This document shows positions 8,046 to 61,345 of a stretch of DNA of 64,000 nt, one piece after another. Numbering within the stretch: the stretch's first letter is position 1; each line of letters opens with the position of its first letter. Under the pieces are notes generated by a model. It was not told the origin of the DNA. It searched no databases and was given only the letters and a program-made list of their open reading frames with translations. Location of the stretch: NCBI GenBank assembly GCA_013426185.1, contig CP058602.1:271123-335122 (forward strand), in the 5' to 3' direction. The DNA comes from Candidatus Woesebacteria bacterium. GTDB taxonomy: Bacteria; Patescibacteriota; Microgenomatia; UBA8517. Position numbers and translations under genes: made by a program.

Positions 8046-8048
8046 GAT

Positions 8049-8441: not shown

Positions 8442-8588
8442 AAATCATAAATCAAAATTCTATAATCCAGTTCTTGATCTTTAAGTTAATCTGTTAATTG
8501 TTATATTGTGATTTTTTTGTAATTTGTACTTTGGAATTTGTACTTTGGAATTTGCCTGCCCTGAACCGAATTTATTCTGGTTCAAGGT
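8442..8588. repeat. Mosaic intergenic repeat: TCATAAA heptamers, AATTTGT/ACTTTGG units and the hairpin core (copy a, inverted, 8549-8587)
   Basis: The reverse complement of 8549-8587 is 'ccttgaaccagaataaattcggttcagggcaggcaaatt'. Confidence 0.8.
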
Positions 8589-9869
8589 TTAGGATTTAGA
8601 ATTTATTGTGTAATACTTAATTACTATTCCCCATGTATAAACCAAAAGAATTGTGTTTGTGATTCCAAATGTAATCGTTGGACCAAAGGCACCAAATTTT
8701 GGAATTAAAAGATAATTTAAAACCAAAATTGCCGCCGTCTGAAAAACTGAAAAAACACCAATAATCTTAGGTTTTTTCATTGCATAAATGATGGCCGAGA
8801 CCGAAGGAGCAGTAAATAAAAAGGGAATCATAGAAAGAGCCAAAGCCTGAAAGACTTTAAACGATTCAAGATATTTAGTGCCAAAAAGAAAAAGAACAAA
8901 AGGCTTGGCAATTATCACCCAGAAAATTATCCCCAAACTGATACCAAGTAATGCCAAAACAGATTTTAGGATAAACCTCTTTTCCTTCTCCTTATCTCCC
9001 ATCGAAGCAAGGCGTGGAGAAATAACAGCTGCAAAACTTGATGTTAAAACAGCAATAAAAAAAGCAAGACGACTGGCAACTGAATAATAACCAGTTACAG
9101 TTGCGCCAGCTAAAGCCGCAAGCATCTGGATATCCGCCCTTCCTGAAATAGAAGATAAAATTCTGTTTACTCCAAGCCAGCCGGAAAATTTAACTAAATC
9201 AAGATAAATGTCTTTTTTCGGTTTTGCCCTTAAAAAATCAAAACCCAAAACAAAATAGGTAACAACTACTGTAACAAGGCCGGTCAAAGCAAAAGCAAAA
9301 AGGGATTTTGATAGAGTAAGCCCAGCAAGAGCAAAAAGCAAAACAAAAACCACACGGCCAAAAGAGTAAGAAACCTCAACGAGCATTGAGGAAGAAAATC
9401 TCTTGTAAGCCTGAAGAACAGAAGAAACAAAACTTGATAAAGAAAGACCAATAAGAATAACTATCGCCCAGTAAACCAAAGAGATATCATCACTTGCCAA
9501 AAGTCTATTTGAAATAACGCGACCAAAAGCAAAGAGGATAAACGAAATAAAAAGAAAAAATAAAACTCTAATCACCAAACCCGCTTTTATGTATTCCTTT
9601 GCTTTTTTATCTTCACCCTGCTTGATACTCGCTATAAAGTTAATAAGCGCCGAACTTACACCAAGATCAAGAATAGGAACTATCATCAAGGCAAGATTGT
9701 TGACAGCCGAAAATACTCCGAAGTCAGAAACTGAAAGAGCTCTTGCCACAAACCAAGTGAAGACAAATCCCAAAAAAGCCGTGGCCACATTGCTGAAAAA
9801 AAGAATGTAAGTATCCCGCGCAGTAGATGAGCGAGCCAGGCCAAAAGCTTTGTCAAAATATCTTCTCAC
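8589..9869 (-). CDS. Polysaccharide biosynthesis protein / oligosaccharide flippase (MOP superfamily, Wzx-like)
   Basis: 426 aa, ~12-14 TM helices, glycine-rich helices typical of Wzx/MATE-like exporters. The C-terminal codons run into the intergenic repeat. Confidence 0.55.
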   Translation of the reverse strand: MRRYFDKAFGLARSSTARDTYILFFSNVATAFLGFVFTWFVARALSVSDFGVFSAVNNLALMIVPILDLGVSSALINFIASIKQGEDKKAKEYIKAGLVIRVLFFLFISFILFAFGRVISNRLLASDDISLVYWAIVILIGLSLSSFVSSVLQAYKRFSSSMLVEVSYSFGRVVFVLLFALAGLTLSKSLFAFALTGLVTVVVTYFVLGFDFLRAKPKKDIYLDLVKFSGWLGVNRILSSISGRADIQMLAALAGATVTGYYSVASRLAFFIAVLTSSFAAVISPRLASMGDKEKEKRFILKSVLALLGISLGIIFWVIIAKPFVLFLFGTKYLESFKVFQALALSMIPFLFTAPSVSAIIYAMKKPKIIGVFSVFQTAAILVLNYLLIPKFGAFGPTITFGITNTILLVYTWGIVIKYYTINSKS

Positions 9870-9929
9870 TCCTCTATTTTAACATTGAAGCGACAAAAGA
9901 GAGAGTAGCAAGTAGGAAGTAGTAAGGAG

Positions 9930-10262
9930 ACTCAATTTCTAAGCACTAATATCTAAATTCTAAACAAATTACAAGTTCCAAATTCCAATATACAAACAAA
10001 TTACAATAAAAAGAGCATAAATCCTAAATTCTAAATCCTAAATTCTAAATCCTAAATTCTAAATCCTAAACCCTGAACCAGAATAAATTCGATTCAGGGC
10101 AGGCAAATTACAAGAACCAAATCATAAATCATAAATCCTAAATCCATATTCAAGAGTCAAAAATTAGATTATTGATTATAGATTGTAGATTATAGAATTT
10201 GGCTTTCTACTTTCTACGTTCTACTTTCTACTTAAATTTCTTTTAACTTTGCACTTTGAAGT
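9930..10262. repeat. Mosaic intergenic repeat: ACAAATT array, (C/T)CTAAAT x8 array, hairpin core (copy b, 10071-10109), TCATAAA, GATTATA/GATTGTA, TACTTTC and AACTTTG heptamer arrays
   Basis: Direct reading. The modules recur in the spacers at 8442, 25380, 26380, 27405 and 29905. Confidence 0.85.
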
Positions 10263-10379
10263 TTTACGTTGTATCCGTATACTAGTACACAGACCAAACA
10301 AAGAAAGTCAATAAAAAAGGAAAACTAAAGCTATTTATCGATGTTAATACATCTACAACGATGATAAAGGTAAAAGGAT

Positions 10380-10408
10380 ACCCTTTAAAGGCCTGGCCTT
10401 TAAAAGGT
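10380..10408 (-). terminator. Palindromic hairpin (CCCTTTAAAGGCC / GGCCTTTAAAAGG) immediately 3' of CDS 10409..11419
   Basis: 13-bp near-perfect inverted repeat with a 1-nt loop. The A/T tract after it is weak. Confidence 0.35.
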
Positions 10409-11419
10409 TCAAGAATCAACCTTAATTATCACCTCTTTAAAAGCTTCGACAAAAGGAACACAAGCCGTAAAAAATCTACCGTTCTCAATCAATAAAGAAG
10501 GAATCGTTAAATAATAATAATTTTCCCTCTGCACTCTTTTCCTGTAAAATCTATTGTGCAGTTCGGCGTATAACTTAGCGGGTTTGATATTATGTTTGGT
10601 ATAGACAAAATATTCAAATAAACCGTTAACCAGAATTTCCTTCGTCTTAAACCAGAGATATGCCCAAAATTCATCTTCTGGAGCAATCTTTTTCACCAAT
10701 CTCAAAGCAAATTCATAAGCATTCTTTTCTTTCAGATACCGCCCTGCTTGAGAACCACTTTCCAGCAAAATTTTTTCGTGTCTTGCGTGTCCTAATTCAT
10801 GAACAAAAGTAAATATCTCGGGAAGTGTTTTTGTCACCAAATCGCATCTTATTTCAAATACATCCTTTCCACTGTTATAAATACAGGAGGCCTCTTGGTT
10901 CTTTCTTTTTATTCTTATCTTATTAATTAATTCTTTTGCTTTAGGGTCTGTCTTTTTCCAAACTCTATAAATTTCGTCTATTTCGTATTTCTTTTGAGAC
11001 CTGTGAGCAGGAAAAGGGAGATAAAATTCTGACCAATATTCTCTTGGAGTACCTTTTTTAAATTTCACCTTTTCATTTATAAAAGAAATTATTACATCCG
11101 AATTCTCAACAAAATTCTTTAAATCATTCTCGGGAATTTCACTTTTTTCTGATATCTCCTCAATAAAGTTTTTATAACCTTTGTAAACAGAGGATTTATT
11201 TAGAAGCTTTACAAACCTGGCAAAACTCCTATCAGCTTCTTTTAGATCTTTCTCATACTTTTTAAACTTCCTCAACTTCTCAGCATAATCGACCCGCGCA
11301 AAAAAGATTCTTCTCAATCTTTTTGCTTTAACATCAGTTACAAGACTTCTTATTTTATGAAGTTCTAATCCTGCTTCAAACAAAGTAGCCTTATAAAGAA
11401 GATCTTTATTCTTCATCAC
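10409..11419 (-). CDS. ImmA/IrrE-family (COG2856-like) HExxH metallopeptidase-domain protein
   Basis: 'FVHELGHARHEK' matches the HE[LI]GH..H signature of ImmA/IrrE zinc peptidases. The N-terminal ~200 aa is unassigned. Confidence 0.45.
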   Translation of the reverse strand: MMKNKDLLYKATLFEAGLELHKIRSLVTDVKAKRLRRIFFARVDYAEKLRKFKKYEKDLKEADRSFARFVKLLNKSSVYKGYKNFIEEISEKSEIPENDLKNFVENSDVIISFINEKVKFKKGTPREYWSEFYLPFPAHRSQKKYEIDEIYRVWKKTDPKAKELINKIRIKRKNQEASCIYNSGKDVFEIRCDLVTKTLPEIFTFVHELGHARHEKILLESGSQAGRYLKEKNAYEFALRLVKKIAPEDEFWAYLWFKTKEILVNGLFEYFVYTKHNIKPAKLYAELHNRFYRKRVQRENYYYLTIPSLLIENGRFFTACVPFVEAFKEVIIKVDS

Positions 11420-11429
11420 TAATCTTATA

Positions 11430-11500
11430 AAAATGGGGTGGGTAGAAACATCGAGAAAGAAATACTTGGTTTCAACCCACCCCCAGGTTGGCTGGTTATT
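11430..11500 (-). terminator. Putative rho-independent terminator (GC-rich stem GGGGTGGGT/ACCCACCCC followed by a T-run)
   Basis: Minus-strand read: 'ggggtgggttgaaacc...ctacccaccccatttttat'. Confidence 0.4.
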
Positions 11501-11511
11501 CTAAAAGGTCA

Positions 11512-11703
11512 TTAGTTTGAACCGTCCTGCCTAGCTTGATCCATGGCCTCTTTTGCCTCGGAGTCACTAACTCCCGTGTCTTTAGCTGCATCCTTGTAAG
11601 TATAACCATCTCTCGTTGCAAGCCACTCAGCTACTTCGTACGAAAGTTGGCTAACCTCCGGCTTGGTATCCTTATCGTCACTCTTCTTATCTCCAGGTCC
11701 CAT
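11512..11703 (-). CDS. Small acidic protein (63 aa) with N-terminal M-GPGDK, paralog of 25750..25950
   Basis: Strong SD (GGAGG, 7 nt upstream), a sigma70-like promoter and a downstream hairpin. Shares the N-terminal GPGDK and DGYT motifs and a 5'UTR motif GTTGGCT with the 25750 gene. Confidence 0.5.
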   Translation of the reverse strand: MGPGDKKSDDKDTKPEVSQLSYEVAEWLATRDGYTYKDAAKDTGVSDSEAKEAMDQARQDGSN

Positions 11704-11790
11704 AGTTAACCTCCTTACAATGTAAAAGTGCCAGCCAACCTTTAATAATCATATTTTAAAATAAATAGGCTTAATTTTCAAATTCTTCTA
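11704..11790 (-). promoter_or_regulatory. Sigma70-like promoter (TTGAAA-N17-TAAAAT) plus a ~45-nt leader with a GGAGG SD for the small acidic protein gene
   Basis: Read on the minus strand: 'ttgaaaattaagcctatttattttaaaat...gttggctggc...taaggaggttaactATG'. Confidence 0.45.
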
Positions 11791-11817
11791 CAGGTCACAG
11801 ACTTTTTAGACATTCCT

Positions 11818-12245
11818 CATTTCTCAATAAGGTAGCCTAATGGTGGTTTAAAGCCAAAAGACTCATGGAGTCTTTTGCTATTATAGAATATCAGATATTC
11901 TGCTAGTTTTTCATAAAAGAGTTTGGGATGATAGATTAAATCTGAATTTGGTTCTAAGAATTCTTCCTTTAAAGTTCTTTGATATCTTTCAATTACTCCA
12001 TTAATTTTGGGACAAAGAGAGGATAAATAAAGTAATTGGTAATTTGTCTTTTTGAAAGATATTTTTCAAAGATTCCTTGGAATTCTAACCCATTATCAGT
12101 CTGGATGGATCTAATTTGTCCTGGGTAAACTAACTCCAAATTCTTGAAGAAGTCTAAGGTATTGAAACTATTAAGCTTAAAATAGGGTAAAGAAAAACCA
12201 AATTTGAGCTTGATATTACAAGCAGAGTAAAGATAAAGTTTTACT
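11818..12245 (-). pseudogene. Degraded DDE integrase (rve-domain, IS481/IS3-like) transposase remnant, C-terminal part only, frameshifted
   Basis: Minus-strand translation gives '...LVYPGQIRSIQTDNGLEFQG...' then, after a frameshift, 'NGVIERYQRTLKEEF...YNSKRLHESFGFKPPLGY'. This matches the rve core (DNGxEF ... NGxVER..RTLK). There is no intact ORF and the N-terminus is missing. Confidence 0.6.
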
Positions 12246-12291
12246 TCTTGGCCAACTTCAAGCTAAACAAAATTGACAAGGTCCGTCCTTG

Positions 12292-13617
12292 TCACTTAGC
12301 ATCTACAATCTTCAATTTTTCAAAACCATAATAAGCGGCGACACAGGATGAAACCCAGCCTTTATTATCGGTAAAACTATCAAGACCGCCCACCGGTTTA
12401 ATATTTTTAATTTCAGGAAGATTTTTAACTTCCCTATCCCAGCTAACAGCATAGTTTGCTATCTCGGATCTAACAGACAACCAGTGAGAAAAGACCGACC
12501 TGGTCAAAAAGAAAATAGCAAAAAAATTTAAAAACAAAATAAGCACAAACATCTTTTTCTTAATAAAATCCGAAGAAAAATAATAATTGAACAAGCCAAA
12601 AAGAGAAAGCGAAATAATATAAAAAGAAAATAAAACAAAATAAAAGACAATAAAAAGAGTCCTTTCAGGAGGAATTATAGACATTGAATAATATCCGGAG
12701 AAAATAACCGCCATTGTAGAAAAAACTATATTTGCCAAAGCAAAAACTAAAATCAAAACCGTCTTTTTAGGATCGATTTTTATCTTTTTAGCAAAAAATA
12801 GAGTTGACGCAAAAATAATCAAAAGAGAATACAAAAAAGGCTTAAGACTTGCCATTCTCAAAAGGTACCATTTTGTGGCAAGAACTGAGGACTTAATAAC
12901 AAAAACCAAACTCTCAGGCTTTGTGACAGTCAGACTTCTTGCATCATTGCCAGGTGAAAGAGACATCAAAAAGAGAGAGACCAAAACTCCCAAAAAACCT
13001 GAAATAACAAATTTTAATCTTGACTTTAAGCCATCAAGCTTAAGAATATATAAAGAAGAAATAACTAAAAATATAAAGACCAAAAGACTAAGCGCAAAAG
13101 CTTCAGAAAAACCGGAAGCAATAAAAAGCAAAATGAAGCCCAATAAAAACCTGCGCTTATTTTCCCGAAGAATAAGAAGCGATAAAAAGGCATTCAAAAA
13201 TACAAAAGGAATAGTGTAATTTAAAGAACCAGTCTGCCAATAAAAAGACTGAATTATATTCGGCGCATTGATTAAAACCAAAAGAATAAAAACCACGGAA
13301 AAGATAATACTCTTAAAGAAGATAACACGAGAGGTCAAAACCAAAAGGGAAAATAAAACTAAAGGCAATATCCGAACAATCCACGGACCCATTGATTCAA
13401 ACAAATCAGTAAAAAAGACAGCAGAATATCTCCCTGTCCAACTTTTCCACCAGCCAATCTGCGCCCCGATAAAGCCATTATTCCGAAGAAAAACTGCGGA
13501 ACAAAAATCATCAACCCAATAACGGACGTAAAAAGAAGTGGTAATTATAAAATAAAGGCAAATTGAAATAAAAACGAGGTAAGTAAAATAGATGAGAAAC
13601 CTTTTAAAAATAGGCAT
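12292..13617 (-). CDS. Polytopic membrane protein (GT-C or polymerase candidate)
   Basis: 441 aa, highly hydrophobic, multi-TM. Confidence 0.45.
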   Translation of the reverse strand: MPIFKRFLIYFTYLVFISICLYFIITTSFYVRYWVDDFCSAVFLRNNGFIGAQIGWWKSWTGRYSAVFFTDLFESMGPWIVRILPLVLFSLLVLTSRVIFFKSIIFSVVFILLVLINAPNIIQSFYWQTGSLNYTIPFVFLNAFLSLLILRENKRRFLLGFILLFIASGFSEAFALSLLVFIFLVISSLYILKLDGLKSRLKFVISGFLGVLVSLFLMSLSPGNDARSLTVTKPESLVFVIKSSVLATKWYLLRMASLKPFLYSLLIIFASTLFFAKKIKIDPKKTVLILVFALANIVFSTMAVIFSGYYSMSIIPPERTLFIVFYFVLFSFYIISLSLFGLFNYYFSSDFIKKKMFVLILFLNFFAIFFLTRSVFSHWLSVRSEIANYAVSWDREVKNLPEIKNIKPVGGLDSFTDNKGWVSSCVAAYYGFEKLKIVDAK

Positions 13618-13800
13618 CAGATTACAAGCTCCAAATTACAAATCACAAATTACAATTTACAAACAACTAACAAATTACAATATACAAATTACAAATCACA
13701 ATATACAAGCACCAATAAACAAATTACAAGCTACAAATCACAAATCACAATATACAAATTCCAAATCACAAATTAACTCAAAACTTAAAAATCAAAGTCA
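13618..13800. repeat. 7-bp-periodic tandem array (ACAAATT/ACAAATC/ATATACA variants), ~25 units
   Basis: Direct reading: 'acaaatt acaaatc acaaatt acaattt acaaaca ...'. Related arrays occur in at least 8 other spacers. Confidence 0.85.
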
Positions 13801-13803
13801 AAA

Positions 13804-14148
13804 TTACTTAAATTTATTTATTATTGACGAAAGAATATTTCTGATTTCGATGCACTCTTTAATCAAATTTTCAAGTTCGAGCTTAAACTTTGGTTCGGCC
13901 TCGAGTAAAATATCCAACCAATAAGAAGTCTCTTTGGCTTCTTTTCTAGCAATTTTCAGCCTAAGGACAGAATCTTTTTTACTCAAGCTATCATTTGCTT
14001 CTCGATAATTGGCACCAACACTTGTGGCAGACCTTACAATTTGACTAATCAAAGGTATATTAATACTGTTTTTAGGAAGTTTCCTGCAAAGAGAAATCAC
14101 ATCTTTTGAGAAGGCTAAAGTTCTTTCCTCTAAGTCGTAAACCTTCAT
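13804..14148 (-). CDS. Four-helix-bundle protein (TIGR02436 family), second copy
   Basis: 'ERTLAFSKDVISLCRKLPKN...ISQIVRSATSVGANYREA...KIARKEAKETSYWLDIL' matches the family. Flanked on both sides by inverted heptamer arrays. Confidence 0.8.
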   Translation of the reverse strand: MKVYDLEERTLAFSKDVISLCRKLPKNSINIPLISQIVRSATSVGANYREANDSLSKKDSVLRLKIARKEAKETSYWLDILLEAEPKFKLELENLIKECIEIRNILSSIINKFK

Positions 14149-14159
14149 ATTATTTTGTT

Positions 14160-14290
14160 ATCAATTGTAATTTACTTCTTGGAATTTGTGATTTGTTTAT
14201 TGAGATTTGTTATTGTTTGTAATTTAGAATTTGGAGCTTGGGATTTGTTTGTAATTTGTGATTTGTAATTTGGAATTTTAACCAGAAGTA
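14160..14290. repeat. Heptamer tandem array in the opposite orientation (AATTTGT/GATTTGT/AATTTGG)
   Basis: Inverted relative to the 13618-13800 array. Overlaps the 3' end of CDS 14172..15911. Confidence 0.8.
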
Positions 14291-15911
14291 TTGCTTTTGC
14301 ATCCATTCTTTCATAATTCTTGGAGGGCTCAATCTGATACACACCCTTTAATTCATATTCTTCTGCAATTTTGTCGCATCCATCGCATTTCCATTTAGTC
14401 TTATCTTGCGGGTTTTCAAAAATCATTCTCCAATCCTCACCCATATAATAATTCGGGTCGTCAATTTTATAGCTTGTCAGATAAATCGCGTCAAAAGGTA
14501 TTGTTTGAGTTTTTTCGTCAATAAGTTGTTTTGGCTCAAGAGGAAACCAAACGGTTTTGCGTTCTCCATACCAAGTGCCCCAAGTATCAAGATTTGTAAC
14601 AATCACCTGGTTTGGCTCTGTATTCTCCTTTAAAATTTTTGAGAGTTCTACATAAACAGGTGGCTTGCCAACATTATGTGTCCTTGCCTCAAAGCGTGAG
14701 TCAAGAAGTAAAATTCCAAGAGTTTGACCAACAGCTAAGAAAAGCACCAATATACAAGATCCAATAAACAAAAAGCTTCGCTTTGTAACTTGCTTGGAAT
14801 TTGTTTGTGATTTGGAATTTGGAATTTGTAATTTGGAGCTTGGAATTTGTTTGTAATTTGTAATTTGGAATTTGTTAATTATTCCAACCAGTGTTCCTAC
14901 TCCAACTATATAAACCAAAGGCACAACGGGATGTATGTATCTAAAAAAAGGAATTCCAGCTGCTGTTACCAAAAGAGTTAAAACTACCATAAAAAAAGAC
15001 GCTACTTTAAAGCCAGTCTGAAGAGTAGTTTGCCCTTCTTTTGTCCTATCAAAAAGAGAAAATAATCCGATTACAAAAAGAGTAAAAAGATAAGGATTCA
15101 AAATTTGTGGCATCAACTTGTAAAAGTTGTAAAGGTTGTAGAAAACTTTCTTGAAAAGAGAAAGAAAATTAAAAGATTGTCGCGGCAAACCGCGCAAAGC
15201 GTCAGAAACTGCCATATTAGGGCTGTGCTGAAGAGAAACAAAATTGCCGATTGAAGTTACAGAATAAAGGAAGAACCTTCCTTGAAACTTTGGAATTAGA
15301 AAATAATCAACCAAAAGGCCAAATAAAACTAGACTTAAGAACCAAGACAAAGCCTTTTTTGGTTTAAAATTAATAAGTAACCAATAAAGAATAATTCCTG
15401 CGATATAAATAAAGGCTTGAGTGCGGGTAAAATACATTAAAATCAAAAAGAAAAACATCAAGAAATTAGCCCATTTTTTCTTCAAAGAAACAAAATATAA
15501 TGAGGCAACTATCTGAAAAATAAAAGTAGATTCTGAAGCCCCACTTGTTGCATAGTCAATTAGATTATAATTTGCGCCAACTGCCAAAGTAGAAAGGAAG
15601 CCTATTAGTTTTGAATTGAAGATCTTTTTTGCAAGAAGATAAACAAAGACTAAAGTTAAAAGAAAATAAAAAAAGGAATTGGCGATAACTGCAAAATCAG
15701 AAATTCCAAGGATTTTGAAAAAGAAAGCAATTGATAAAGAATGAAAAGGCAAAATGCCAGTGTTTTGGAAAAGAGGTTTTTCCAAAACTTCAAAAATCCT
15801 TTCTCCCCAAAAAGAAAAACTTGTCCCCCACCCCCTACCCAAAACAAAATTCCTAGCAACATCAGCATATTTTGCAGAATCAGAAAAAGTGAGATAAAAG
15901 TCCATATTCAT
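14172..15911 (-). CDS. GT-C-type polytopic membrane glycosyltransferase (ArnT/PMT-like). Carries a repeat-derived in-frame internal insertion and a repeat-derived C-terminal tail
   Basis: N-terminal region and TM architecture resemble the ArnT-like paralogs. Codons at ~14760-14885 and 14172-14290 are heptamer-repeat sequence translating to N/K/S/Q/T-rich peptide (NYKSQITN...). Confidence 0.5.
   Translation of the reverse strand: MNMDFYLTFSDSAKYADVARNFVLGRGWGTSFSFWGERIFEVLEKPLFQNTGILPFHSLSIAFFFKILGISDFAVIANSFFYFLLTLVFVYLLAKKIFNSKLIGFLSTLAVGANYNLIDYATSGASESTFIFQIVASLYFVSLKKKWANFLMFFFLILMYFTRTQAFIYIAGIILYWLLINFKPKKALSWFLSLVLFGLLVDYFLIPKFQGRFFLYSVTSIGNFVSLQHSPNMAVSDALRGLPRQSFNFLSLFKKVFYNLYNFYKLMPQILNPYLFTLFVIGLFSLFDRTKEGQTTLQTGFKVASFFMVVLTLLVTAAGIPFFRYIHPVVPLVYIVGVGTLVGIINKFQITNYKQIPSSKLQIPNSKSQTNSKQVTKRSFLFIGSCILVLFLAVGQTLGILLLDSRFEARTHNVGKPPVYVELSKILKENTEPNQVIVTNLDTWGTWYGERKTVWFPLEPKQLIDEKTQTIPFDAIYLTSYKIDDPNYYMGEDWRMIFENPQDKTKWKCDGCDKIAEEYELKGVYQIEPSKNYERMDAKAILLVKIPNYKSQITNKSQAPNSKLQTITNLNKQITNSKK
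14760..14885. repeat. Heptamer array embedded in-frame inside CDS 14172..15911
   Basis: 'ttggaatttgtttgtgatttggaatttggaatttgtaatttggagcttggaatttgtttgtaatttgtaatttggaattt'. Confidence 0.8.
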
Positions 15912-16034
15912 TCAGACTTAGTATACCTCCCCAAAATCTCGCTGACAAATTTAATAATCATTAAAAAGAATAATATATATACAATTACAAGGTAAACCAT
16001 TATAATAAGGAAAATTAGTAAAATAAAAAGGAGA

Positions 16035-17803: not shown

Positions 17804-17944
17804 CAGCCCTATAATATAAAGGCCCTATAAATCCTTATGTTTGGTCCACTTCTATCTTTCTAGTAAACAAAACTAGCAATCTTGGCCGAATATGGTTGGT
17901 GTCGTTAAAATCCGTAGACGGTAATAACATATACCTAAATCACA

Positions 17945-23212: not shown

Positions 23213-23215
23213 AAA

Positions 23216-25270
23216 TCAGAAATCAAAAACTAAGCTACAAGTTTGTCTTATACGGGCCTTGGAAAAAACAACTAAAACGCAATTACCCTCCTTATAATAA
23301 ATTTCCTTAAAAGGTTCAAAACCATTTTCATAATCACCTTCCCTTGAGAGATTTATCAAACTCTCTGATAACTGCTTAGTTAGCCGATCCCTTTTCGATA
23401 AATCACCATCTTCATAATCTAAAACTATCTTATTCTTAACACCCTCAAATCTCAAAAAACGCTCAAGAGAAAATATTGGTTCGTAACTCCAAGGATTATC
23501 AGCTCTAAAAATAATAACCCTATTATCTTTATCTCTGACTTCTCGAGCAAGAGTAAGCACATTTTCTGTAAACAGATTTGTATACTTCACTGTATTCTCT
23601 TGTGCTCTTATCAGGGTATAATAACCTCTCAGCGGAACAAAGACAAGAAGTGTACTAAAAAAGAACCAATAAAAAAACAACACAATAAAATTCTTTAGTG
23701 TCTTATCAAAAATATAAGAACCTTTAACAGCTCTAGCAAATAAATATAAAGAAGATAACCAAAAAATATACTTTGATAAAATACCGGGGAAATCATATCT
23801 CCACCCACTAGGCCAGCTGCCTGAATAAAACACAAATTGAGAAAGATAAACCAAATAAGAAAAAAATATCAAAAATAATGAAAACTTATTTAAAATTGCG
23901 AACTGTATACGCTTCTTACTCCTTAAAAATGTAAAAGAAATCAAGAGAATTGGAAAAAAAATCAAATTCAGGCCAGTAAATGAGTTTCTTAAACCCAAAA
24001 CTAAATTCTTCAAAAGAACTGATTCATTAACATCATTAGCATAGAAGTTTTGACCAACTTTACTTACAGCCACAAAAACACCTAAAAATACAAAAAAAGA
24101 GAACAAAATATGCAAAGATAAATAAAATAAACCCTTCTTATTATCCTTGATAATTAGAGGATGAGCTAAAATCAAATAAATAGCAGGTAACGCCAAAACA
24201 ACCATATTTTCTTTTGATCCTATAGCCAAAATACCCCCCAACAGGAACAAAAGCCAAAAGAAAAGAGATTTGGGTTTACCATTAAGGATTTTGTATAAAG
24301 AAAGAGAATACAGAGAAAGACCTAGTACCACATAAATTTCACCAGGTCCAAGACGAGCCCAAATATCGTACCAGTATTTGTCGGTCATAATAAACAGGGT
24401 AAAGATGATTCCAGATAACAAACCAAAATACCGAGAAACCAAAAAAGTTACTGAAAAGACAAAAATAGAAAGAATGACAAAACGAGCAAAATACCAAAGA
24501 AAAGGGTTGTCACGCCACAAAGCGCTTTCAACTATCCGCACTAAATAATAAGATGGCCTAAACCTGAGAGCTTTTCCATAATTGCCGACTTCTGTTTTTA
24601 AAAGAAGTTTAGGTATTTCACCAAACAAGATTTTCTTATCAGATCCTAAAAAATAAGCTGTTTCATGATCATCTATCATTGACCATTTAGCCTTAAAATT
24701 TTCTTTAAATATAAGAAAACTAAAAACTAAAGAAAAAATAAGAATCAAAACCAAGGATAACTTAGTTTTTGGAGGATTGAACAACTTTTCTAAAGAAAAA
24801 AAGAACTTAGATTTAGCAAACTTTTCAATTAATGCATAAACTAAACTAAAATTATTTCTAAAATCTTTTTTTGAATCAAGAATTGTTCTCAAAAAAATAA
24901 CGGCAAAAAAAACTAGCAGATAATTTAATGGGGCTAAAGAAATGTGATACCTAGAAAAAACGAAATTAGGAAAATTCAATCTTTCTTCTATATTTAAGAA
25001 AATTGCAACAAACAAAATAAAAGGGGTTATGTAGAACACTGCTCTTTTTAATAAATAAGGGTAACGAACCTTATAGAAAATAATCAAGGCAACAGAAATA
25101 AGAAGAAAAACTTGAATAGGAACTTTTATATGATTAAAAACAACACCGGGATAAACAAAAACTTCAGCCAATAACAAAAAAAGAACAAAAGATAGAAAAA
25201 AAAGAAAAATTATAAATGATACTGTTTTTTTGGTCTTAGTCATAATATTGAAATTAAATGATAAACTCAA
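23216..25270 (-). CDS. Large polytopic membrane protein (684 aa), GT-C candidate
   Basis: At least 14 TM helices plus a C-terminal soluble domain. Confidence 0.45.
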   Translation of the reverse strand: MSLSFNFNIMTKTKKTVSFIIFLFFLSFVLFLLLAEVFVYPGVVFNHIKVPIQVFLLISVALIIFYKVRYPYLLKRAVFYITPFILFVAIFLNIEERLNFPNFVFSRYHISLAPLNYLLVFFAVIFLRTILDSKKDFRNNFSLVYALIEKFAKSKFFFSLEKLFNPPKTKLSLVLILIFSLVFSFLIFKENFKAKWSMIDDHETAYFLGSDKKILFGEIPKLLLKTEVGNYGKALRFRPSYYLVRIVESALWRDNPFLWYFARFVILSIFVFSVTFLVSRYFGLLSGIIFTLFIMTDKYWYDIWARLGPGEIYVVLGLSLYSLSLYKILNGKPKSLFFWLLFLLGGILAIGSKENMVVLALPAIYLILAHPLIIKDNKKGLFYLSLHILFSFFVFLGVFVAVSKVGQNFYANDVNESVLLKNLVLGLRNSFTGLNLIFFPILLISFTFLRSKKRIQFAILNKFSLFLIFFSYLVYLSQFVFYSGSWPSGWRYDFPGILSKYIFWLSSLYLFARAVKGSYIFDKTLKNFIVLFFYWFFFSTLLVFVPLRGYYTLIRAQENTVKYTNLFTENVLTLAREVRDKDNRVIIFRADNPWSYEPIFSLERFLRFEGVKNKIVLDYEDGDLSKRDRLTKQLSESLINLSREGDYENGFEPFKEIYYKEGNCVLVVFSKARIRQTCSLVFDF

Positions 25271-25379
25271 CTATCAGACGCAGACAAAGCATATTAGTAT
25301 AAACTCCCCCTATTTTAGCATCTTTAAAAATTTTTTGAGTATAAAACAGAAGTTAACTTAAAACTTATGATCAGATTAT

Positions 25380-25530
25380 AGAAACAAATTACAATATACA
25401 AGCTCCAAATTACAAACTAACTTAAAACTTAAAAATCAAAAGTCAAAAATATAACTCAAAAATTAAAACTCAAAAGTTAAAACATTGATTATAGAATTTT
25501 GATTTATGATTTATGAATTAAGAAGCAATC
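25380..25530. repeat. Mosaic intergenic repeat (ACAAATT heptamers, AAAACTT/AAAAGTC heptamers, TTGATTTATGA units)
   Basis: Shares modules with the spacers at 8442-8588, 9930-10260 and 27405-27780. Confidence 0.7.
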
Positions 25531-25666
25531 AACTCCGATATCCGAAGGCTGATAGCTGAAATCCGAATTCTTTCAACTTTGAACTATTGAATATTGATTT
25601 AAGAATTAGGAATCTCATTCATCTTTATTCTAAAACTACCAAAATTCTTCCTAGATGCACAACGAA

Positions 25667-25695
25667 TTGCCTTAAGACCAGATTTGTTGTAATAT
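25667..25695 (+). promoter_or_regulatory. Sigma70-like promoter TTGCCT-N17-TAATAT for the small acidic protein gene
   Basis: Followed by a leader containing 'GTTGGCT' and the SD 'AGGAGG' 6 nt before the ATG. Confidence 0.45.
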
Positions 25696-25749
25696 ACCAT
25701 TAGTAGGGTAAAAGTTGGCTCTTTCAAATTCTCAAAACAGGAGGCAAAG

Positions 25750-25950
25750 ATGTCTGGCCCTGGAGATAAAAGTGGAGTATCTGATATACAAGATAAGTTT
25801 GGAGTTGACGGTTACACTGTCTCTTCGAACGATTATGGTGGGCAACATCATACCGTCTTTGATTCTGACGGTGGTTCATACCGATTTTCTTGGGATACCG
25901 ACAGTAAAGGTGAATACGTCGATGGTAGCGCTCACATAAGTGAGCAATAA
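25750..25950 (+). CDS. Small acidic S/T/D/G/Y-rich protein (66 aa) with N-terminal MSGPGDK, paralog of 11512..11703
   Basis: Strong SD, promoter and a terminator hairpin immediately 3'. Preferred over the overlapping antisense ORF 25724..25987. Confidence 0.5.
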   Translation: MSGPGDKSGVSDIQDKFGVDGYTVSSNDYGGQHHTVFDSDGGSYRFSWDTDSKGEYVDGSAHISEQ

Positions 25951-25958
25951 TCTTTTTT

Positions 25959-26006
25959 GCTACAGGTCCTACCTCTATAGTAGCCAACTGCCTGTAGCAT
26001 TTTTTA
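25959..26006 (+). terminator. Rho-independent terminator candidate (GCTACAGG ... CCTGTAGC + ATTTTTTAT)
   Basis: 8-bp perfect inverted repeat followed by a T-run, directly after the stop codon at 25948-25950. Confidence 0.5.
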
Positions 26007-26007
26007 T

Positions 26008-26376
26008 ATGAGATACTTTACGGGAAAGAACAAAATTGAATTGCCTTTATCCAAATCAAAATGGAAGGAAATCCTTAAAGTCGTTAGGGCGGATGAAAGA
26101 AACCTAAGCGAAGAAGATGCCAAAAATATCTTCTGCCTATCTTTTGAGTTTTTCCTAAAAGGCAAACTTTCAATAGATGATATATCTTCAATCAATGGTA
26201 GGCTTTTGGAAGCCATAAGCGGTAGAACCAATAAATACCCAGAACTAATTGACGGACTAGAAGCAGGATCAGAACTAGGCTTTTACATTAGAGACATAAA
26301 CTTGATACTAAACTTTAAAAACTTTCTTGAAGAAGTCTTCTCTGTTTATAATTCACTCCGCTCTCAGACAAAATAA
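26008..26376 (+). CDS. Hypothetical soluble protein (122 aa)
   Basis: ORF only. No recognisable motif. Confidence 0.35.
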   Translation: MRYFTGKNKIELPLSKSKWKEILKVVRADERNLSEEDAKNIFCLSFEFFLKGKLSIDDISSINGRLLEAISGRTNKYPELIDGLEAGSELGFYIRDINLILNFKNFLEEVFSVYNSLRSQTK

Positions 26377-26379
26377 CAA

Positions 26380-26640
26380 TTAACAGTTAACAAATTAACA
26401 AATTAACTCAAAACTTGAGATTAGAATAAAGAACATAGAACAAAGGGAAAAATTACCCGCCTGCAAAAGCTATCGCTTTAGCGATTGCGGGCAGGCAAAT
26501 TCCAAATTCCAAATTACAAACAAAAAATTTCAACTTTTAACTTTGCACTTTGAACTTTTAACTATTTATTTTTATTAATTTGGCTTTCTACTTACTACGT
26601 TCTACTTTCTACTTAAATTTATTTTAACTTTGAACTTTTA
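26380..26640. repeat. Mosaic intergenic repeat (AACTTTT/AACTTTG heptamers, TACTTTC heptamers, a short palindrome GCAAAAGCTATCGCTTTAGCGATTGCGGGCAGGC)
   Basis: The 'ggctttctacttactacgttctactttctactt' and 'aacttttaactttgcactttgaacttttaac' modules recur at 10199-10262 and 30113-30185. Confidence 0.75.
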
Positions 26641-27404
26641 ACTATCATTCTTCTTCCCCAATTATTGAGCTTGTGAAGGAATAAGATCAAGGGGTTTTTG
26701 GTGTATTTTTGGACAATATCCTCGTCTTTTGTAAGTAATTTTTCAAATGATGTTGAAGAAGCATTTTCTCCGCTCATTCTGAATGATGAAAGATTTTTAT
26801 TAATTAAAAGAGGCATTCTCTCTTTTGAAATCTTAAGCCAAAGGTCGTATTCCATAACAAAGTGATCAGTGCCAATAAATGGGCCGAATTTTTGCCACGC
26901 CTTGCGGGTTATAAATACGGAAGGTTGAATAAGATAATTTACAATTAAAAGTATTGTTCTTAAGTTTAAAAATAAAAGTAAATTTTTATAGAAAGTAACA
27001 AGTTTTGCCACTTCTTTCCCCGCGCTATTTACCACTTTTCCTTTCCCTGCCACCCAAAGACAATCGGGATTTTTTTGATAAGTTTTTGCAACTTCAAAAA
27101 AAGCGTCTTTTTCATAAAAATCATCAGCATTAATAAAAGCTAAGATTTCACCTGTTGCTTTATCAAAGCCCTTATTAATTGCATCCCATTGGCCTTTATC
27201 TTTTTTGGATTCAAATTTAATAATTTTTGGATATTTTTGAGCGTATTTTCTAATAATTTCCAAAGTTCCGTCGGTTGACGCCCCATCCTGAATAATCACT
27301 TCTAAATTTGGGTAATTTTGGGAAATAATAGAGTCAATCGTCTTTTTAATAAATTGTTTTTTATTAAAAGAGGGAATGACTACTGAAATTTTGGGTAAGT
27401 CCAT
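26619..27404 (-). CDS. GT2 glycosyltransferase
   Basis: 'ISVVIPSFNKKQFIKKTIDSIISQ...EVIIQDGASTDGT' and a 'NADD' DxD-like motif. Confidence 0.7.
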   Translation of the reverse strand: MDLPKISVVIPSFNKKQFIKKTIDSIISQNYPNLEVIIQDGASTDGTLEIIRKYAQKYPKIIKFESKKDKGQWDAINKGFDKATGEILAFINADDFYEKDAFFEVAKTYQKNPDCLWVAGKGKVVNSAGKEVAKLVTFYKNLLLFLNLRTILLIVNYLIQPSVFITRKAWQKFGPFIGTDHFVMEYDLWLKISKERMPLLINKNLSSFRMSGENASSTSFEKLLTKDEDIVQKYTKNPLILFLHKLNNWGRRMIVKSSKLK

Positions 27405-27514
27405 AGGATTATTATAACAGGGTGAAAGGTAAAAGGTGAAAGTTAAAAGAAATTTGGACTTCAGACTTCGGACATCGGCTGCCGGATATCAGCTGCCAGA
27501 AGTTAGTCAAAGTT

Positions 27515-27702
27515 GGTGAAGCTGGCCAAAAGATAGTATTTAGTATCTTGTATTATGTATTATGCATAAAAATGCATCGTCCCCATAATACATAATTCAT
27601 AATACTAAGTTCAGATTTTTTCCCTTTGTTCTTTGTTCTAATCTAGTAAGTAAAAGGCAAGAGGTAAAAGGTAAAAGAGATGCAAGTAGAAAGTAGAAAG
27701 CC
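27515..27702. repeat. Inverted-repeat element copy A (~185 bp) with a central 13-bp-stem hairpin (ATTATGTATTATG / CATAATACATAAT)
   Basis: Near-perfect reverse complement of 30161-30345, except the asymmetric hairpin loop, which keeps the same orientation. Confidence 0.8.
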
Positions 27703-27707
27703 AAATT

Positions 27708-28844
27708 CTATAATCTACAATCTATAATCAATAATCTAATTTTTGACTTTTGACTTTTAAGTTTTGAGTTAATAAAAGATCCCAACGAAAGATAAATAAA
27801 AGGAAGAATTATAAGAAAATAACGGCTGAAAGGAGCATTAAAGATATTTATCAAAAAATAAAAAATAGGAAAAATAAAAATAAAATCCTTCTTTTCCAGC
27901 CTTTTGATATTTTTAATCTGCAAAATCCCAAAAACAAAACCCAAAGGCCAGAAGAAATTCCAAACATCAGCTTTTAAGATTCTTCCCTTCTCCCACCAAC
28001 TCACAAAATGACCACTGAAAAACAAAAGTAGATTATTGCCAAAAATAGAAGTGGTATTGTGAGAAAGCATAAACTTAAGCATTTTTAATTCAAAAAGAAA
28101 AATGTTAAAAAGGCCGCCATAATTTATGAAAGTCTTGATATAAGTAAGACTGAAAGTAAAAAAGGCTACCAAAAAACTCAAAAACATATTTTTATAATCA
28201 ACCTTTTCTTTAATCAAAAATTTTCTGTAAAGAAAAATAAAAACCACAAGAAGCAAGCTTGAGCTCCAAAACTTGGAGGCAAAAAGAAGACCCAAGACAA
28301 AACCGTTCAAAAGAAAATTATTGGGAAAATATAAAGCCAAAATTATGTAAAATAAAGAAAACACAGCTTGTGCCGGATCCAAAAGCAATTGTGTAATATT
28401 ATCCTTTAGAAGTGGGTCAAAAACAAGAAAAAGCGAGGCCAAAAAAGCAACTTCTCTCTTCTTAAAAGCCATCTTTCCCAAAAGATAAGTCAAGAATATT
28501 AAAAATAAAGCAAAGAAAATTTGCACCCAATAGGGATTTACAAAAAAGAGGGTAGCAAAACCAAAAAGATACTTTACAAGAGGAGGATGCTGAAAATTAA
28601 ATTTTGTCGGGTCCTCACCCTTGGCATAAAGATAACCTGTGGCAAGGTAAATTTCAGAATCAGATAAAAATATTCTATCTTTTATTTTGTCTTCTTTATC
28701 TTCTATATCTTGGCTGCGAAAATAATTATCGATTAGACCTTCATCAAAACGATATTTGAAAATATCAGGATTTTTAAAATAGGAAAAAACCAAAAAGAGA
28801 ATAAAAAGCAAAAACAAAAGCCAAAAATCAACTTTTTTAAGCAT
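27708..28844 (-). CDS. Polytopic membrane protein
   Basis: 378 aa, multi-TM. Lies between the inverted repeat copies together with gmd. Confidence 0.45.
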   Translation of the reverse strand: MLKKVDFWLLFLLFILFLVFSYFKNPDIFKYRFDEGLIDNYFRSQDIEDKEDKIKDRIFLSDSEIYLATGYLYAKGEDPTKFNFQHPPLVKYLFGFATLFFVNPYWVQIFFALFLIFLTYLLGKMAFKKREVAFLASLFLVFDPLLKDNITQLLLDPAQAVFSLFYIILALYFPNNFLLNGFVLGLLFASKFWSSSLLLVVFIFLYRKFLIKEKVDYKNMFLSFLVAFFTFSLTYIKTFINYGGLFNIFLFELKMLKFMLSHNTTSIFGNNLLLFFSGHFVSWWEKGRILKADVWNFFWPLGFVFGILQIKNIKRLEKKDFIFIFPIFYFLINIFNAPFSRYFLIILPFIYLSLGSFINSKLKSQKSKIRLLIIDCRL

Positions 28845-28853
28845 TAATAGAGG

Positions 28854-29864
28854 CTACTTCAAACGAGCCAGATTAGCATCAACAAGCATCTGAACAAGCT
28901 CTTTAAAAGAGGTTTTGGGCTTCCAGCCAAGAACTTTCTTTGCTTTTGATGGATCAGCCACAAGAGGCCCAGTTTCAGTAGGTCTTATGAAACGAGGATC
29001 AACATAAATATACTTTTTATAGTCAAGGCCAACATAAGAAAAGGCCTCTTCACAAAGCTCTTTGATAGAGTGAGTTTCACCTGTACCTACAACAAAATCA
29101 TCAGGTTCTTTGTGCTGAAGCATTAGCCACATGCTTTCTACATAATCACCAGCAAAACCCCAATCTCGTCTTGCTTCGAGATTGCCAAGTGCCACTTTTC
29201 CATCTTTAACAATGGGTTCTCCCTCTTCATTCAAATGCTGACTAGTTCTAATACCAAGCTTTGCACAGGCAGCAGCATAAGTAACTTTTTGGGTTACAAA
29301 ACCAAGACCACGGCGAGGCGACTCGTGATTAAATAAAATACCACAGGAAATAAACATTTTATAACTCTTTCGATAAATTCTGGCAATATTATGAGCATAA
29401 AGCTTTGCGGCAGCATAAGGATTTGCGGGATTAAAGGGCGTTTCTTCATTTTGTGGAATCTCCTTCACCCATCCGAACATCTCGCTAGATGACGCTTGAT
29501 AAAACCTCGCATTAGGAACTACGTCTAAAGCAGCATCCATTACTCTATGAGCACCAATACCAGTTATTTCAGCTGTGTGAATAGGCTGTCTGAAGGATTC
29601 GGCGGGATGAGATTGAGAAGCTAAATTATAAATTTCATCGGGCTTAACTTTTTGTATAGCCTCTCTTATTGCCACAGGGTCAAGTAAATCTGCCTGAATA
29701 AGATTAAGCCTCTCTTGAATGTGAGCAATATTGGCATAATAAAAGTGGCTAGTTTTTCTTACAATACCCGAGACCTCGTAACCCTTTTTAAGAAGAAATT
29801 CAGCCAAGTAAGAACCGTCTTGACCAGTGATACCCGTAATAAGTGCCTTTTTCTTCTTTGACAT
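28854..29864 (-). CDS. gmd: GDP-mannose 4,6-dehydratase
   Basis: 'ALITGITGQDGSYLAEFLLKKGYEVSGIVR' N-terminus, a YxxxK active site, and the conserved 'RRGxxFVTxK' region. Full length of 336 aa. Confidence 0.9.
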   Translation of the reverse strand: MSKKKKALITGITGQDGSYLAEFLLKKGYEVSGIVRKTSHFYYANIAHIQERLNLIQADLLDPVAIREAIQKVKPDEIYNLASQSHPAESFRQPIHTAEITGIGAHRVMDAALDVVPNARFYQASSSEMFGWVKEIPQNEETPFNPANPYAAAKLYAHNIARIYRKSYKMFISCGILFNHESPRRGLGFVTQKVTYAAACAKLGIRTSQHLNEEGEPIVKDGKVALGNLEARRDWGFAGDYVESMWLMLQHKEPDDFVVGTGETHSIKELCEEAFSYVGLDYKKYIYVDPRFIRPTETGPLVADPSKAKKVLGWKPKTSFKELVQMLVDANLARLK

Positions 29865-29904
29865 AAAAGTATCAGTATTATAAACCCATTAATGATAGAT
29901 AAGC

Positions 29905-30160
29905 AAGAGACAAACAATGCATAAAACAAATTCCAAGTTCCAATATACAAATTACAAACAAATCACAATATACAAATTCCAAATTACAAATCACAAACTA
30001 CAAGAAACAAATTCTAAATTCTAATATCTAAATTCTAAATCCTAAACCCTGAACCAGAATAAATTCGATTCAGGGCAGGCAAATTCCAAATCACAAATTA
30101 CAAACAAAAAAATTCCAACTTTTAACTTTTAACTTTGAACTTTTAACTATTTATTAATTT
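29905..30160. repeat. Mosaic intergenic repeat: ACAAATT and CTAAATC heptamer arrays, a hairpin core (copy c, 30047-30085), AACTTTT heptamers
   Basis: The core 'ccctgaaccagaataaattcgattcagggcaggcaaatt' also occurs at 10071-10109 and, inverted, at 8549-8587. Confidence 0.8.
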
Positions 30161-30400
30161 GGCTTTCTACTTTCTACTTGCATCTCTTTTACCTTTTACC
30201 TCTTGCCTTTTACTTACTAGATTAGAACAAAGAACAAAGGGAAAAAATCTGAACTTAGTATTATGAATTATGTATTATGCAGAAAAATGCATTGTTCCCA
30301 TAATACATAATACAAGATACTAGATACAATCTTCCGGCCAGCTTTTGACCAACTCCACTGCAAGCGGGGACTAGCTTCGACCAGCTTCGACCAGCTTCGA
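30161..30400. repeat. Inverted-repeat element copy B (inverse of 27515-27702) followed by a 3x 10-mer 'CAGCTTCGAC' tandem
   Basis: The reverse complement aligns with copy A over ~185 bp. The hairpin stem is at 30267-30279 / 30299-30311. Confidence 0.8.
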
Positions 30401-30406
30401 CCAGTT

Positions 30407-61329: not shown

Positions 61330-61345
61330 AAATTAAAAGTCAAAA

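Follow-up and report, generated by a model that had tools for sequence, protein, structure and literature searches.

We analysed a 64-kb window, together with its strain variants, of the 818-kb genome of a Candidatus Woesebacteria bacterium. This organism belongs to the candidate phyla radiation (CPR) and has a G+C content of about 32%. Spacers of the window carry arrays of 7-nt units. On balance, our results favour an interpretation of these arrays as arms and gene-less derivatives of stem-loop cassettes of the intervening-sequence type which, with nested hairpins, have piled up in almost every spacer of a strain-variable glycosylation locus; we hold this interpretation to be somewhat probable. 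The cassette itself consists of a small gene of the TIGR02436/PF05635 family (S23p, Avd-like) between inverted arrays of a degenerate heptanucleotide.

Four-helix-bundle genes between inverted heptamer arms

Two genes of the window belong to PF05635/TIGR02436, the S23p family of four-helix-bundle proteins, which was first found inside 23S rRNA intervening sequences and is related to Avd. The NCBI product name of the first gene (8049-8441) is '23S rRNA-intervening sequence protein'. Both this gene and the second one (13804-14148) are flanked by heptamer arrays in inverted orientation. The parts of the two cassettes are listed by position in the window, strand and feature (TRF, Tandem Repeats Finder; ORF, open reading frame).

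8031-8068, minus: downstream arm of cassette 1, CATAAAT-type heptamers (TRF period 7); pairs with 8433-8487 in the RNA fold
8049-8441, minus: four-helix-bundle gene 1, 130 aa, PF05635/TIGR02436 (Pfam 4.1e-37; NCBIfam TIGR02436 1e-34)
8433-8487, minus: upstream arm of cassette 1, ATTTATG units and GATTATAGAAT; 84% inverted copy at 25467-25521
13618-13800, minus: downstream arm of cassette 2; on the plus strand, arrays of ACAAATT/ACAAATC (TRF 22.6 copies); pairs with 14160-14290
13804-14148, minus: four-helix-bundle gene 2, 114 aa, PF05635/TIGR02436 (Pfam 2.5e-19; TIGR02436 1.1e-25; PDB 2RLD 2.3e-16)
14160-14290, minus: upstream arm of cassette 2, doubling as the code for the C-terminal tail of ORF 14172-15911 (fold, translation)

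The downstream arm of cassette 1 overlaps the 3' end of its gene and the start of the next gene. When the minus strand of 13600-14300 was folded, the arms of cassette 2 paired over >100 nt (-168.5 kcal/mol, z = -4.0). The original prediction, which had described the arrays as a family of intergenic repeats, overlooked the bracketing of PF05635 genes by two of them; we take the link to a widespread cassette architecture as the key to the identity of the arrays.

A metagenome scan with relatives of gene 2 yielded 80 loci with 91 such genes. For each gene, the 220 nt on its upstream side were compared with the reverse complement of the 220 downstream nt, and local complementarity was scored. The 77 genes had a median of 41, compared with 18 for 184 control segments of the same size and 19 for shuffles. 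Scores of at least 40 were reached by 40/77 genes and 3/184 controls (p = 2.8e-29). The metagenomic arms had a lag-7 identity of 0.60 versus 0.34 at other lags, and the modal spacing of successive AAAT motifs in them was 7. On the sense strand, the upstream arm was A-rich and G-poor (A 51%, G 6%). The excess of identity at lag 7 amounted to 0.129 for spacers adjoining four-helix-bundle genes. For the remaining spacers of these loci it was 0.023 (p = 4.5e-11 versus adjoining spacers), and for coding sequence -0.009.

We inspected 16 annotated four-helix-bundle genes on finished plasmids from cultures of Nostoc, Calothrix, Planktothrix, Treponema, Riemerella, Azospirillum and others. Flanking arrays were present at 15/16 of these genes and inverted arms at 14/16. 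The arms and insertion sites were as follows.

Nostoc punctiforme: arms (CAATTCG)x4 / (GCGAATT)x4
Dolichospermum and Nostoc flagelliforme: arms (TAATTCG)x4
Planktothrix: arms (AATCCCC)x6 (AATCGTA)x4
Calothrix: arms (GGGTGTA)n
Bernardetia: arms (GATTAGT)x15
Treponema: about 20 GAAAGGT-type units
Riemerella: gene flanked by sufB and an accessory gene for Fe-S cluster assembly
Other plasmid cassettes: between cas2 and cas1, cas10 and cmr3, hsdS and hsdR

The cassette of Azospirillum lipoferum (L231) lies inside the large-subunit rRNA gene (Rfam 704 bits) and is a genuine 23S rRNA intervening sequence of the same design. The architecture is seen across phyla and also in a real 23S rRNA gene. Its arms, GGACGGA/TGACAGA, are close to the GACAGAT repeats of Coxiella (PMC4990558).

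Six cultured isolates (L217, L222, L229, L225, L218 and L230) have their four-helix-bundle genes located between adjacent genes of defence systems or of one housekeeping cluster; the neighbours are cas2-cas1, csx2-cas1, cas10-cmr3, hsdS-hsdR, drmD-MmeI and the Fe-S assembly accessory gene/sufB. In the Dolichospermum plasmid (L220), more copies of the (TAATTCG) arm were found 400-900 nt downstream of the cassette (1923-1990 and 2436-2476), inside an annotated hypothetical gene. A Bacteroidota metagenome-assembled genome (L039, 4923-5208) has ~40 AACTTTT copies downstream of a four-helix-bundle gene and (AAAAGTT)n upstream of it; the AACTTTT unit also occurs in the window at 30117-30153. Runs of N, representing masked sequence of the genome collection, were observed within or near four-helix-bundle genes or arrays in L073 (3095-3131, 3404-3454, 6582-6617) and L080 (2919-2955, 4352-4418, 4972-5082).

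The regular period and the base composition of the upstream arms would also suit binding arrays for a host nucleic-acid-binding protein (nucleoid, cold-shock or S1) that has no dependence on the cassette protein and structures DNA or controls translation. For CspB, binding of one heptamer by each molecule is cited in PMC4679880. However, the units range from GGGTGTA to AACTTTT across cassettes and phyla, which misfits one conserved host factor, and nothing in the window indicates such a protein. We consider this explanation very improbable.

The ORFs of Dolichospermum and N. flagelliforme are 77.5% identical and their (TAATTCG)x4 arms 100% identical. On the downstream side, the two are homologous up to the outer edge of the arm and not beyond. 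On the upstream side, the distance between the ORF and the common arm differs, and the flanks are not alignable. A target-site duplication was not evident at the Dolichospermum and Nostoc cassette boundaries, and no clean pair of a filled and an empty site was found.

Conservation of the unit was compared with that of the protein in 43 cassettes, sorted into pairs by protein identity. Among these pairs, which are not independent of each other, the units agreed within one mismatch in 52% of pairs with 60-80% protein identity versus 2-3% of distant pairs; a composition-preserving null was exceeded in 0/2000 permutations. Fourfold sites of the 60-80% pairs were 29% identical, about as in the least related pairs. 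Because the unit stays similar where synonymous sites are saturated, these comparisons suggest that the unit sequence is under a constraint tracking the protein.

Period-7 arrays in the glycosylation locus

About 50 ORFs of the window were scanned. Those matched by Pfam encode glycosyltransferases, a flippase, sugar-nucleotide enzymes and methyltransferases, the exceptions being the two four-helix-bundle genes and one DUF5715 protein; about fifteen ORFs were without a Pfam match. The window is one large glycosylation locus. No rRNA, tRNA or tmRNA was found in it, and none of its arrays or hairpins was assigned to a family in Rfam scans with gathering and E-value thresholds.

Arrays with a 7-nt period are present at every position where they had been predicted (TRF period 7 or 14; sequence inspection), and the tandem-repeat scan and lag autocorrelation proposed as a check confirmed period 7 in the window. 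We required an identity of at least 0.85 between bases k apart over 21 nt and used composition-preserving block shuffles as control. At lag 7, 19 segments were found in the window versus 0.02 in the shuffles. Lags 4-6, 8, 9, 11 and 12 gave zero segments in the window, and lag 10 gave two, both from the decamer GACCAGCTTC x4 at 30369-30408. Among short periods in the window, 7 alone is enriched. The spacers named by the original prediction had a lag-7 identity of 0.46-0.66 versus about 0.30 at the remaining lags. The period thus stands, but not its claimed strictness: TRF matches were 66-100%, with indels and some 8-nt units. The nine array spacers counted earlier are in reality eight array regions and one intragenic array, and the 3' tail of ORF 14172-15911 extends into one of them, 14160-14290.

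The array regions other than the arms listed above are as follows.

8442-8588, no strand: array spacer separating gene 1 from the flippase gene, AAATTCC/AAAGTAC units (lag-7 identity 0.46; 74% copied elsewhere in the window)
9930-10262, no strand: mosaic array spacer upstream of the flippase gene (TRF, lag test)
14794-14880, minus: intragenic array forming an in-frame linker in ORF 14172-15911 (translation)
25380-25530, no strand: solo-arm spacer with ACAAATT units, two third-cassette-type arm copies and a cassette-1-type upstream arm including ATGAAT
26380-26640, no strand: mosaic array spacer (lag-7 identity 0.53; 54% copied elsewhere in the window)
27405-27780, no strand: mosaic array spacer with one arm of a 124-nt repeat (27584-27707) and the solo arm 27741-27771
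29905-30400, no strand: mosaic array spacer with the other arm of the 124-nt repeat (30156-30279); 73% copied elsewhere in the window
61315-61413, plus: empty cassette, both third-type arms with 33 nt between them (arms 91-94% identical to L207; weak hairpin, z = -2.1)

The units of 9930-10262 are ACAAATT, TAAATCC/TAAATTC x8, AAATCAT, GATTATA, CTTTCTA and AACTTTG, and a period-14 array within it (10018-10070) has 100% matches by TRF. The arrays 14160-14290 and 14794-14880 translate in frame to KFQITNYKQIP-like peptides of ORF 14172-15911. The module content of 29905-30400 differs in strains L001, L004 and L006.

The view of the family as a mosaic assembled from 7-nt-periodic modules agrees with TRF, the lag test and the sharing of modules. 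Arrays are present in 7/10 window spacers of at least 120 nt, and 43-83% of each array spacer is duplicated elsewhere within the window, compared with 0% of the array-less spacers 11420-12291, 15912-16034 and 17804-17944. The module order that had been noticed to recur in inverted form extends over 86 nt (10132-10217 and 27686-27771; 90% complementary). A perfect 124-nt inverted repeat (27584-27707 and 30156-30279) brackets two genes, for a hypothetical 378-aa protein and a GDP-mannose 4,6-dehydratase. It could be an inversion substrate or a trace of very recent gene conversion; the inverted order of the two genes was absent in six other contigs.

Beyond 32 kb the genes of the window abut one another. 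The arrays cluster at 8-31 kb because the spacers of the window are there, and one more element, 61315-61413, lies outside the range considered by the original prediction. Since arrays occur in many phyla, the family as a whole is not confined to the glycosylation locus. Array-like matches at 1289-1319 and 3207-3274 fall within intact glycosyltransferase genes (families GT2 and GT4, respectively).

The suspicion that the arrays might be artefacts of assembly, from collapsed low-complexity sequence, was examined and has next to no probability. Short-read contigs often end at arrays (L214 ends at 9653), and many contigs with these genes are 1-3 kb long; the arrays probably fragment metagenome assemblies. 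However, independent NCBI, JGI, ENA and Logan assemblies of related strains carry the same modules in the same places, so the arrays hold up, and the same architecture occurs in finished genomes of cultured isolates. The suggestion of a promoter module was not supported: sigma-70-like matches numbered 80 versus 76.4 +/- 7.2 in shuffles, and several of those within modules point away from any gene.

Some further observations concern the surroundings of the arrays. The decamer GACCAGCTTC x4 (period 10, 93% matches) stands at the end of an array spacer, with a slight overlap into gene 30407-31606 at its stop end. At 27456-27497 there is a related stretch, richer in GC and with period 7/14. The units of both differ from the AT-rich heptamers. 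The 122-aa ORF 26008-26376 between arrays was considered as a diverged member of the four-helix-bundle family and rejected (hhalign probability 0.1). Spacer 11420-12291 comprises 872 nt that contain no arrays and no ORF reaching 80 aa. L208 and L210 have an annotated 63-aa gene in this place; in other strains the whole segment is replaced, either by an oppositely oriented PMT gene of 525 aa or by nothing. From 33508 to 59362, at least 12 paralogous membrane glycosyltransferase genes (PMT_2 / PTPS_related) are tightly packed with almost no spacers, and a 102-nt segment is repeated within this run at 54749, 56409 and 58081.

Gene-less arms, strain variation and the hairpin module

Related strains possess one more member of the family, a third gene that encodes 124 aa and is flanked by AAAACTT/AAGTTTT arms; it is located where the window has two array-less genes. 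As the window lacks both gene and arms at that site, the arms of the third cassette come and go with the gene. Its arms are found elsewhere in the window at 61315-61348 and 61382-61413, 91-94% identical to those flanking the L207 gene; 61315-61413 is an empty cassette. Solo arms of the third cassette are present at 25418-25483 and 27741-27771, and an upstream arm of the cassette-1 type, including ATGAAT, at 25485-25520.

Comparison of the strains showed 90-99% identity for genes but hypervariable spacers. The comparison with related genomes that the original prediction had called for revealed arrays that are polymorphic in length and content. The downstream arm of cassette 2 is 109, 186, 258, 283, 289 or 290 nt long across eight strains, and one of the differences is a clean 7-nt unit. 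This was the single clean one-unit indel found; large strain indels in arrays are not multiples of 7. Of the spacer between the flippase and GT2 genes, strains share only the first and last ~20 nt, and in other strains it is without a four-helix-bundle gene. Zero, one or two different genes are located between the DUF6056 gene and the flippase gene, depending on the strain. The earlier proposal of a recombination substrate fits these comparisons, in which homology and gene content break at arrays.

An array also forms the joint of a fusion. The 579-aa ORF 14172-15911 is a fusion at a heptamer array; in L212 (1738-2328), its C-terminal 196 residues are encoded by a separate gene beside unrelated MacB/FtsX genes, and the array is the upstream spacer of that gene. 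The intragenic array 14794-14880 is a hypervariable linker that is in frame in all strains seen. In L211, it carries a 42-nt hairpin module that is missing at the same site in the window.

Could these arrays be contingency repeats, whose 7-nt copy-number changes switch or tune surface-glycosylation genes by way of promoters, leaders or reading frames? In Haemophilus influenzae, 7-bp repeats upstream of hmw1A act as phase-variation repeats. The arrays here are located upstream of and inside glycosylation genes, their copy number and content differ between close strains, with unit-number polymorphism at surface-structure genes, and 7 is not divisible by three. But instead of long perfect runs the tracts form mosaics that are mostly degenerate, and the intragenic array stays in frame, as noted above. 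Moreover, the same architecture is found at sites to which glycan variation has no relevance, namely rRNA and operons for CRISPR, restriction and suf. Phase variation by 7-bp repeats has a literature (PMC8262952); for the present arrays we regard it as improbable.

Ordinary heptanucleotide microsatellites, born by slippage as neutral filler of spacers in which four-helix-bundle genes merely land or survive, would account for the clean 7-nt indel between two strains and for the many window arrays (the majority) without an adjoining four-helix-bundle gene. Among the long simple repeats of prokaryotes, heptanucleotides show the strongest over-representation, for which slippage of the polymerase has been proposed (PMC4679880, PMC4692102). 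Insertion of a gene into an existing array, however, would leave direct flanks, and the flanks seen are inverted and complementary. Arms are missing where the third cassette is missing, they are fully conserved between genera whose ORFs have diverged (Dolichospermum and N. flagelliforme), and the unit sequence follows protein relatedness beyond composition. We therefore rate the microsatellite explanation as unlikely and continue to favour derivation of the arrays from cassettes.

Nested in the arrays is a GC-rich hairpin module, present in the window in four copies, each followed on its 3' side by CAGGCAAATT.

8549-8587, minus: copy 1, hairpin then CAGGCAAATT (sequence)
10071-10109, plus: copy 2 (sequence)
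26457-26501, plus: variant copy 3; the same variant is found inside an ORF in strain L211
30047-30085, plus: copy 4 (sequence)

Genome contigs were scanned with GGGCAGGCAAATTMCAA. About 140 chance matches were expected, which makes the raw match count uninformative, and only the sequence context of the matches was used. The motif was embedded in AAATTCC/AAATTAC arrays at at least 50/120 loci among the matches listed, and in 59/130 of the matches listed the stem was 6 bp or longer and closed at GGG; 29 stem sequences occurred among these. The genomes among the matches listed belong to CPR groups, Desulfobacterales, Cloacimonadota, WOR-3, Bacteroidota and others; genomes of Desulfobacterales, Cloacimonadota and CPR carry the module in multiple copies. 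The 3' CAGGCAAATT common to the matches in other genomes is fixed by the search pattern; in the window copies it is an observed flank. In a Lentimicrobiaceae contig (L033, ~3170-3200), CCCTAAA units, the plant-telomere heptamer, directly follow the hairpin module and AAAACCC/AAGATCC units.

The many stems closing at GGG, the multi-copy occurrence and the copy that is present in L211 and missing from the window would be expected of elements like repetitive extragenic palindromes (REP) or their paired form (REPIN), spread by a tyrosine transposase of the REP-associated type (RAYT) with arrays as preferred landing sites. The common 3' CAGGCAAATT could be added to these points, but it is set by the search. 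There is no GTAG-type 5' motif, no transposase was found among the ~50 scanned window ORFs, and the modules cover about 40 nt per spacer, not the arrays. We give this explanation little chance. As a part of the cassette, the hairpin module was likewise rejected: it was not enriched near four-helix-bundle genes (1 match versus 0.7 expected), and for this reason we regard it as a separate small element nested in the arrays.

This lack of enrichment also weighs against the derivation of the arrays from cassettes, as do several other results. Just 2/9 array regions adjoin a four-helix-bundle gene, and the CTTTCTA, GATTATA, CTTTTAC and CATAATA palindrome modules were traced to no cassette. The fold around gene 1 is weak (z = -1.7), and the test of unit conservation was based on non-independent pairs. 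No transposase, integrase or reverse transcriptase was seen among the ~50 scanned window ORFs, and no target-site duplication at the Dolichospermum and Nostoc cassette boundaries. Finally, mismatches in the arms were G.U in 161 cases versus A.C in 165 (p = 0.87). There is no excess of G.U and therefore no signature of selection on a sense RNA stem; the inverted pairing could be a feature of the DNA level.

Relation to known repeats and a possible mechanism

The statement of the original prediction that the arrays are not REP, bacterial interspersed mosaic elements (BIME), enterobacterial repetitive intergenic consensus (ERIC) sequences or CRISPR is correct in the strict sense. That they represent no described repeat class has to be revised, because heptanucleotide tandem repeats are already a known over-represented class (PMC4692102, PMC4679880).

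The closest resemblance is to the 23S rRNA intervening sequences with an S23p ORF of Coxiella, Leptospira and now Azospirillum (L231). The protein family is that of the window genes, and the ORF lies in the loop of a stem formed by inverted flanks, as the window genes are bracketed. The intervening sequence of Coxiella has variable heptameric repeats beside its S23p ORF, and their number varies between strains (PMC4990558), as at cassette 2 of the window. In contrast, the window cassettes lie between protein-coding genes for glycosylation rather than in rRNA, their arms are much longer (up to about 180 nt) and are mosaics of several units, and gene-less arms greatly outnumber complete cassettes.

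The short tandemly repeated repetitive (STRR) sequences of cyanobacteria share with the arrays their tandem 7-nt units, intergenic position and occurrence in multiple copies. Canonical STRR units are CCCCAGT, TTGGTCA and CAACAGT, whereas those of the window (ACAAATT, CTAAATC, AACTTTT etc.) are different and form degenerate mosaics in a CPR bacterium of 32% G+C. Plasmid matches to the two four-helix-bundle genes of the window were mostly from Nostocales, including Calothrix, and three tandem heptanucleotides have been reported from Calothrix PCC 7601 (PMC4692102). The GGGAATC repeats of Xanthomonas (Rehm et al. 2015) form 70-75 closely spaced inverted pairs per genome that are capable of forming stem-loops (PMC4692102). 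They are intergenic heptamer arrays whose length varies between related genomes, and they resemble the empty cassette 61315-61413. They differ in being G-rich and quadruplex-capable, and a link to four-helix-bundle genes is not reported in PMC4692102. The TAACTGA repeats of marine Beggiatoaceae, Cyanobacteria and Bacteroidetes are direct heptamer repeats, mostly intergenic and occasionally within ORFs, with a patchy cross-phylum distribution that suggests horizontal transfer; unlike the window arrays, they consist of a single fixed unit just upstream of start codons and are almost never inverted (PMC4679880).

With REP, BIME, REPIN and miniature inverted-repeat transposable elements (MITE), the arrays have in common that they are extragenic mosaics of short palindromic modules, with a predominance of gene-less copies, and act as recombination substrates. 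The window hairpin module, a short imperfect extragenic palindrome in four copies, is without the GTAG-type 5' tetranucleotide of REP, its common flank being the 3' CAGGCAAATT, and no RAYT gene was found among the ~50 window ORFs. The window arms correspond to the terminal inverted repeats of a MITE, but the gene-bearing form encodes only a helical bundle of 115-130 aa and no transposase. Identical repeats of 23-50 nt with unique spacers of similar length, as in CRISPR, are absent, since the window units abut. A diversity-generating retroelement does not fit either: the Avd model scored 29.6 bits against a cutoff of 80, and there is no reverse transcriptase among the window ORFs.

The following mechanism would be consistent with our data. 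Arrays would lengthen and shorten by replication slippage in steps of one unit. Recombination or gene conversion between dispersed copies would shuffle them and swap genes between them. In the transcript, the arms may pair into a long stem, and RNase III would cut this stem by analogy with rRNA intervening sequences, which would make insertion in operons or rRNA tolerable. The similarity of the units despite saturated synonymous sites suggests that the protein may recognise its own heptamer arms.

A wider interpretation is possible, although we regard it as rather doubtful. TIGR02436 genes with inverted heptanucleotide arms might represent one ancient, horizontally spreading type of cassette with a protein that recognises its own arms. 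Intervening sequences in rRNA might then be one niche of several, others being operons for glycosylation, CRISPR-Cas, restriction and Fe-S assembly. Gene-less derivatives might make up much of the prokaryotic heptanucleotide excess, including the cyanobacterial STRR sequences and the inverted GGGAATC pairs of Xanthomonas. Heptanucleotide repeats are known by themselves, and so are S23p intervening sequences (PMC4692102, PMC4679880, PMC4990558); a general linkage of the two across phyla and outside rRNA was not found described in the searchable literature.

For decades there has been no explanation for the excess of heptanucleotide tandem repeats in bacterial genomes, for how 23S rRNA intervening sequences originated or for what the very large S23p family does. 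The arrangement of a heptamer arm, a small gene and an inverted heptamer arm, seen from CPR bacteria to Nostoc, Treponema and Azospirillum, ties these three items together in a form that can be checked. A 'repeat of unknown function' thereby becomes directly testable in tractable cyanobacteria, with regard to arm binding, RNase III cutting and mobility. In the genome studied here, a strain-specific surface-glycan locus has its variable joints in the arrays.

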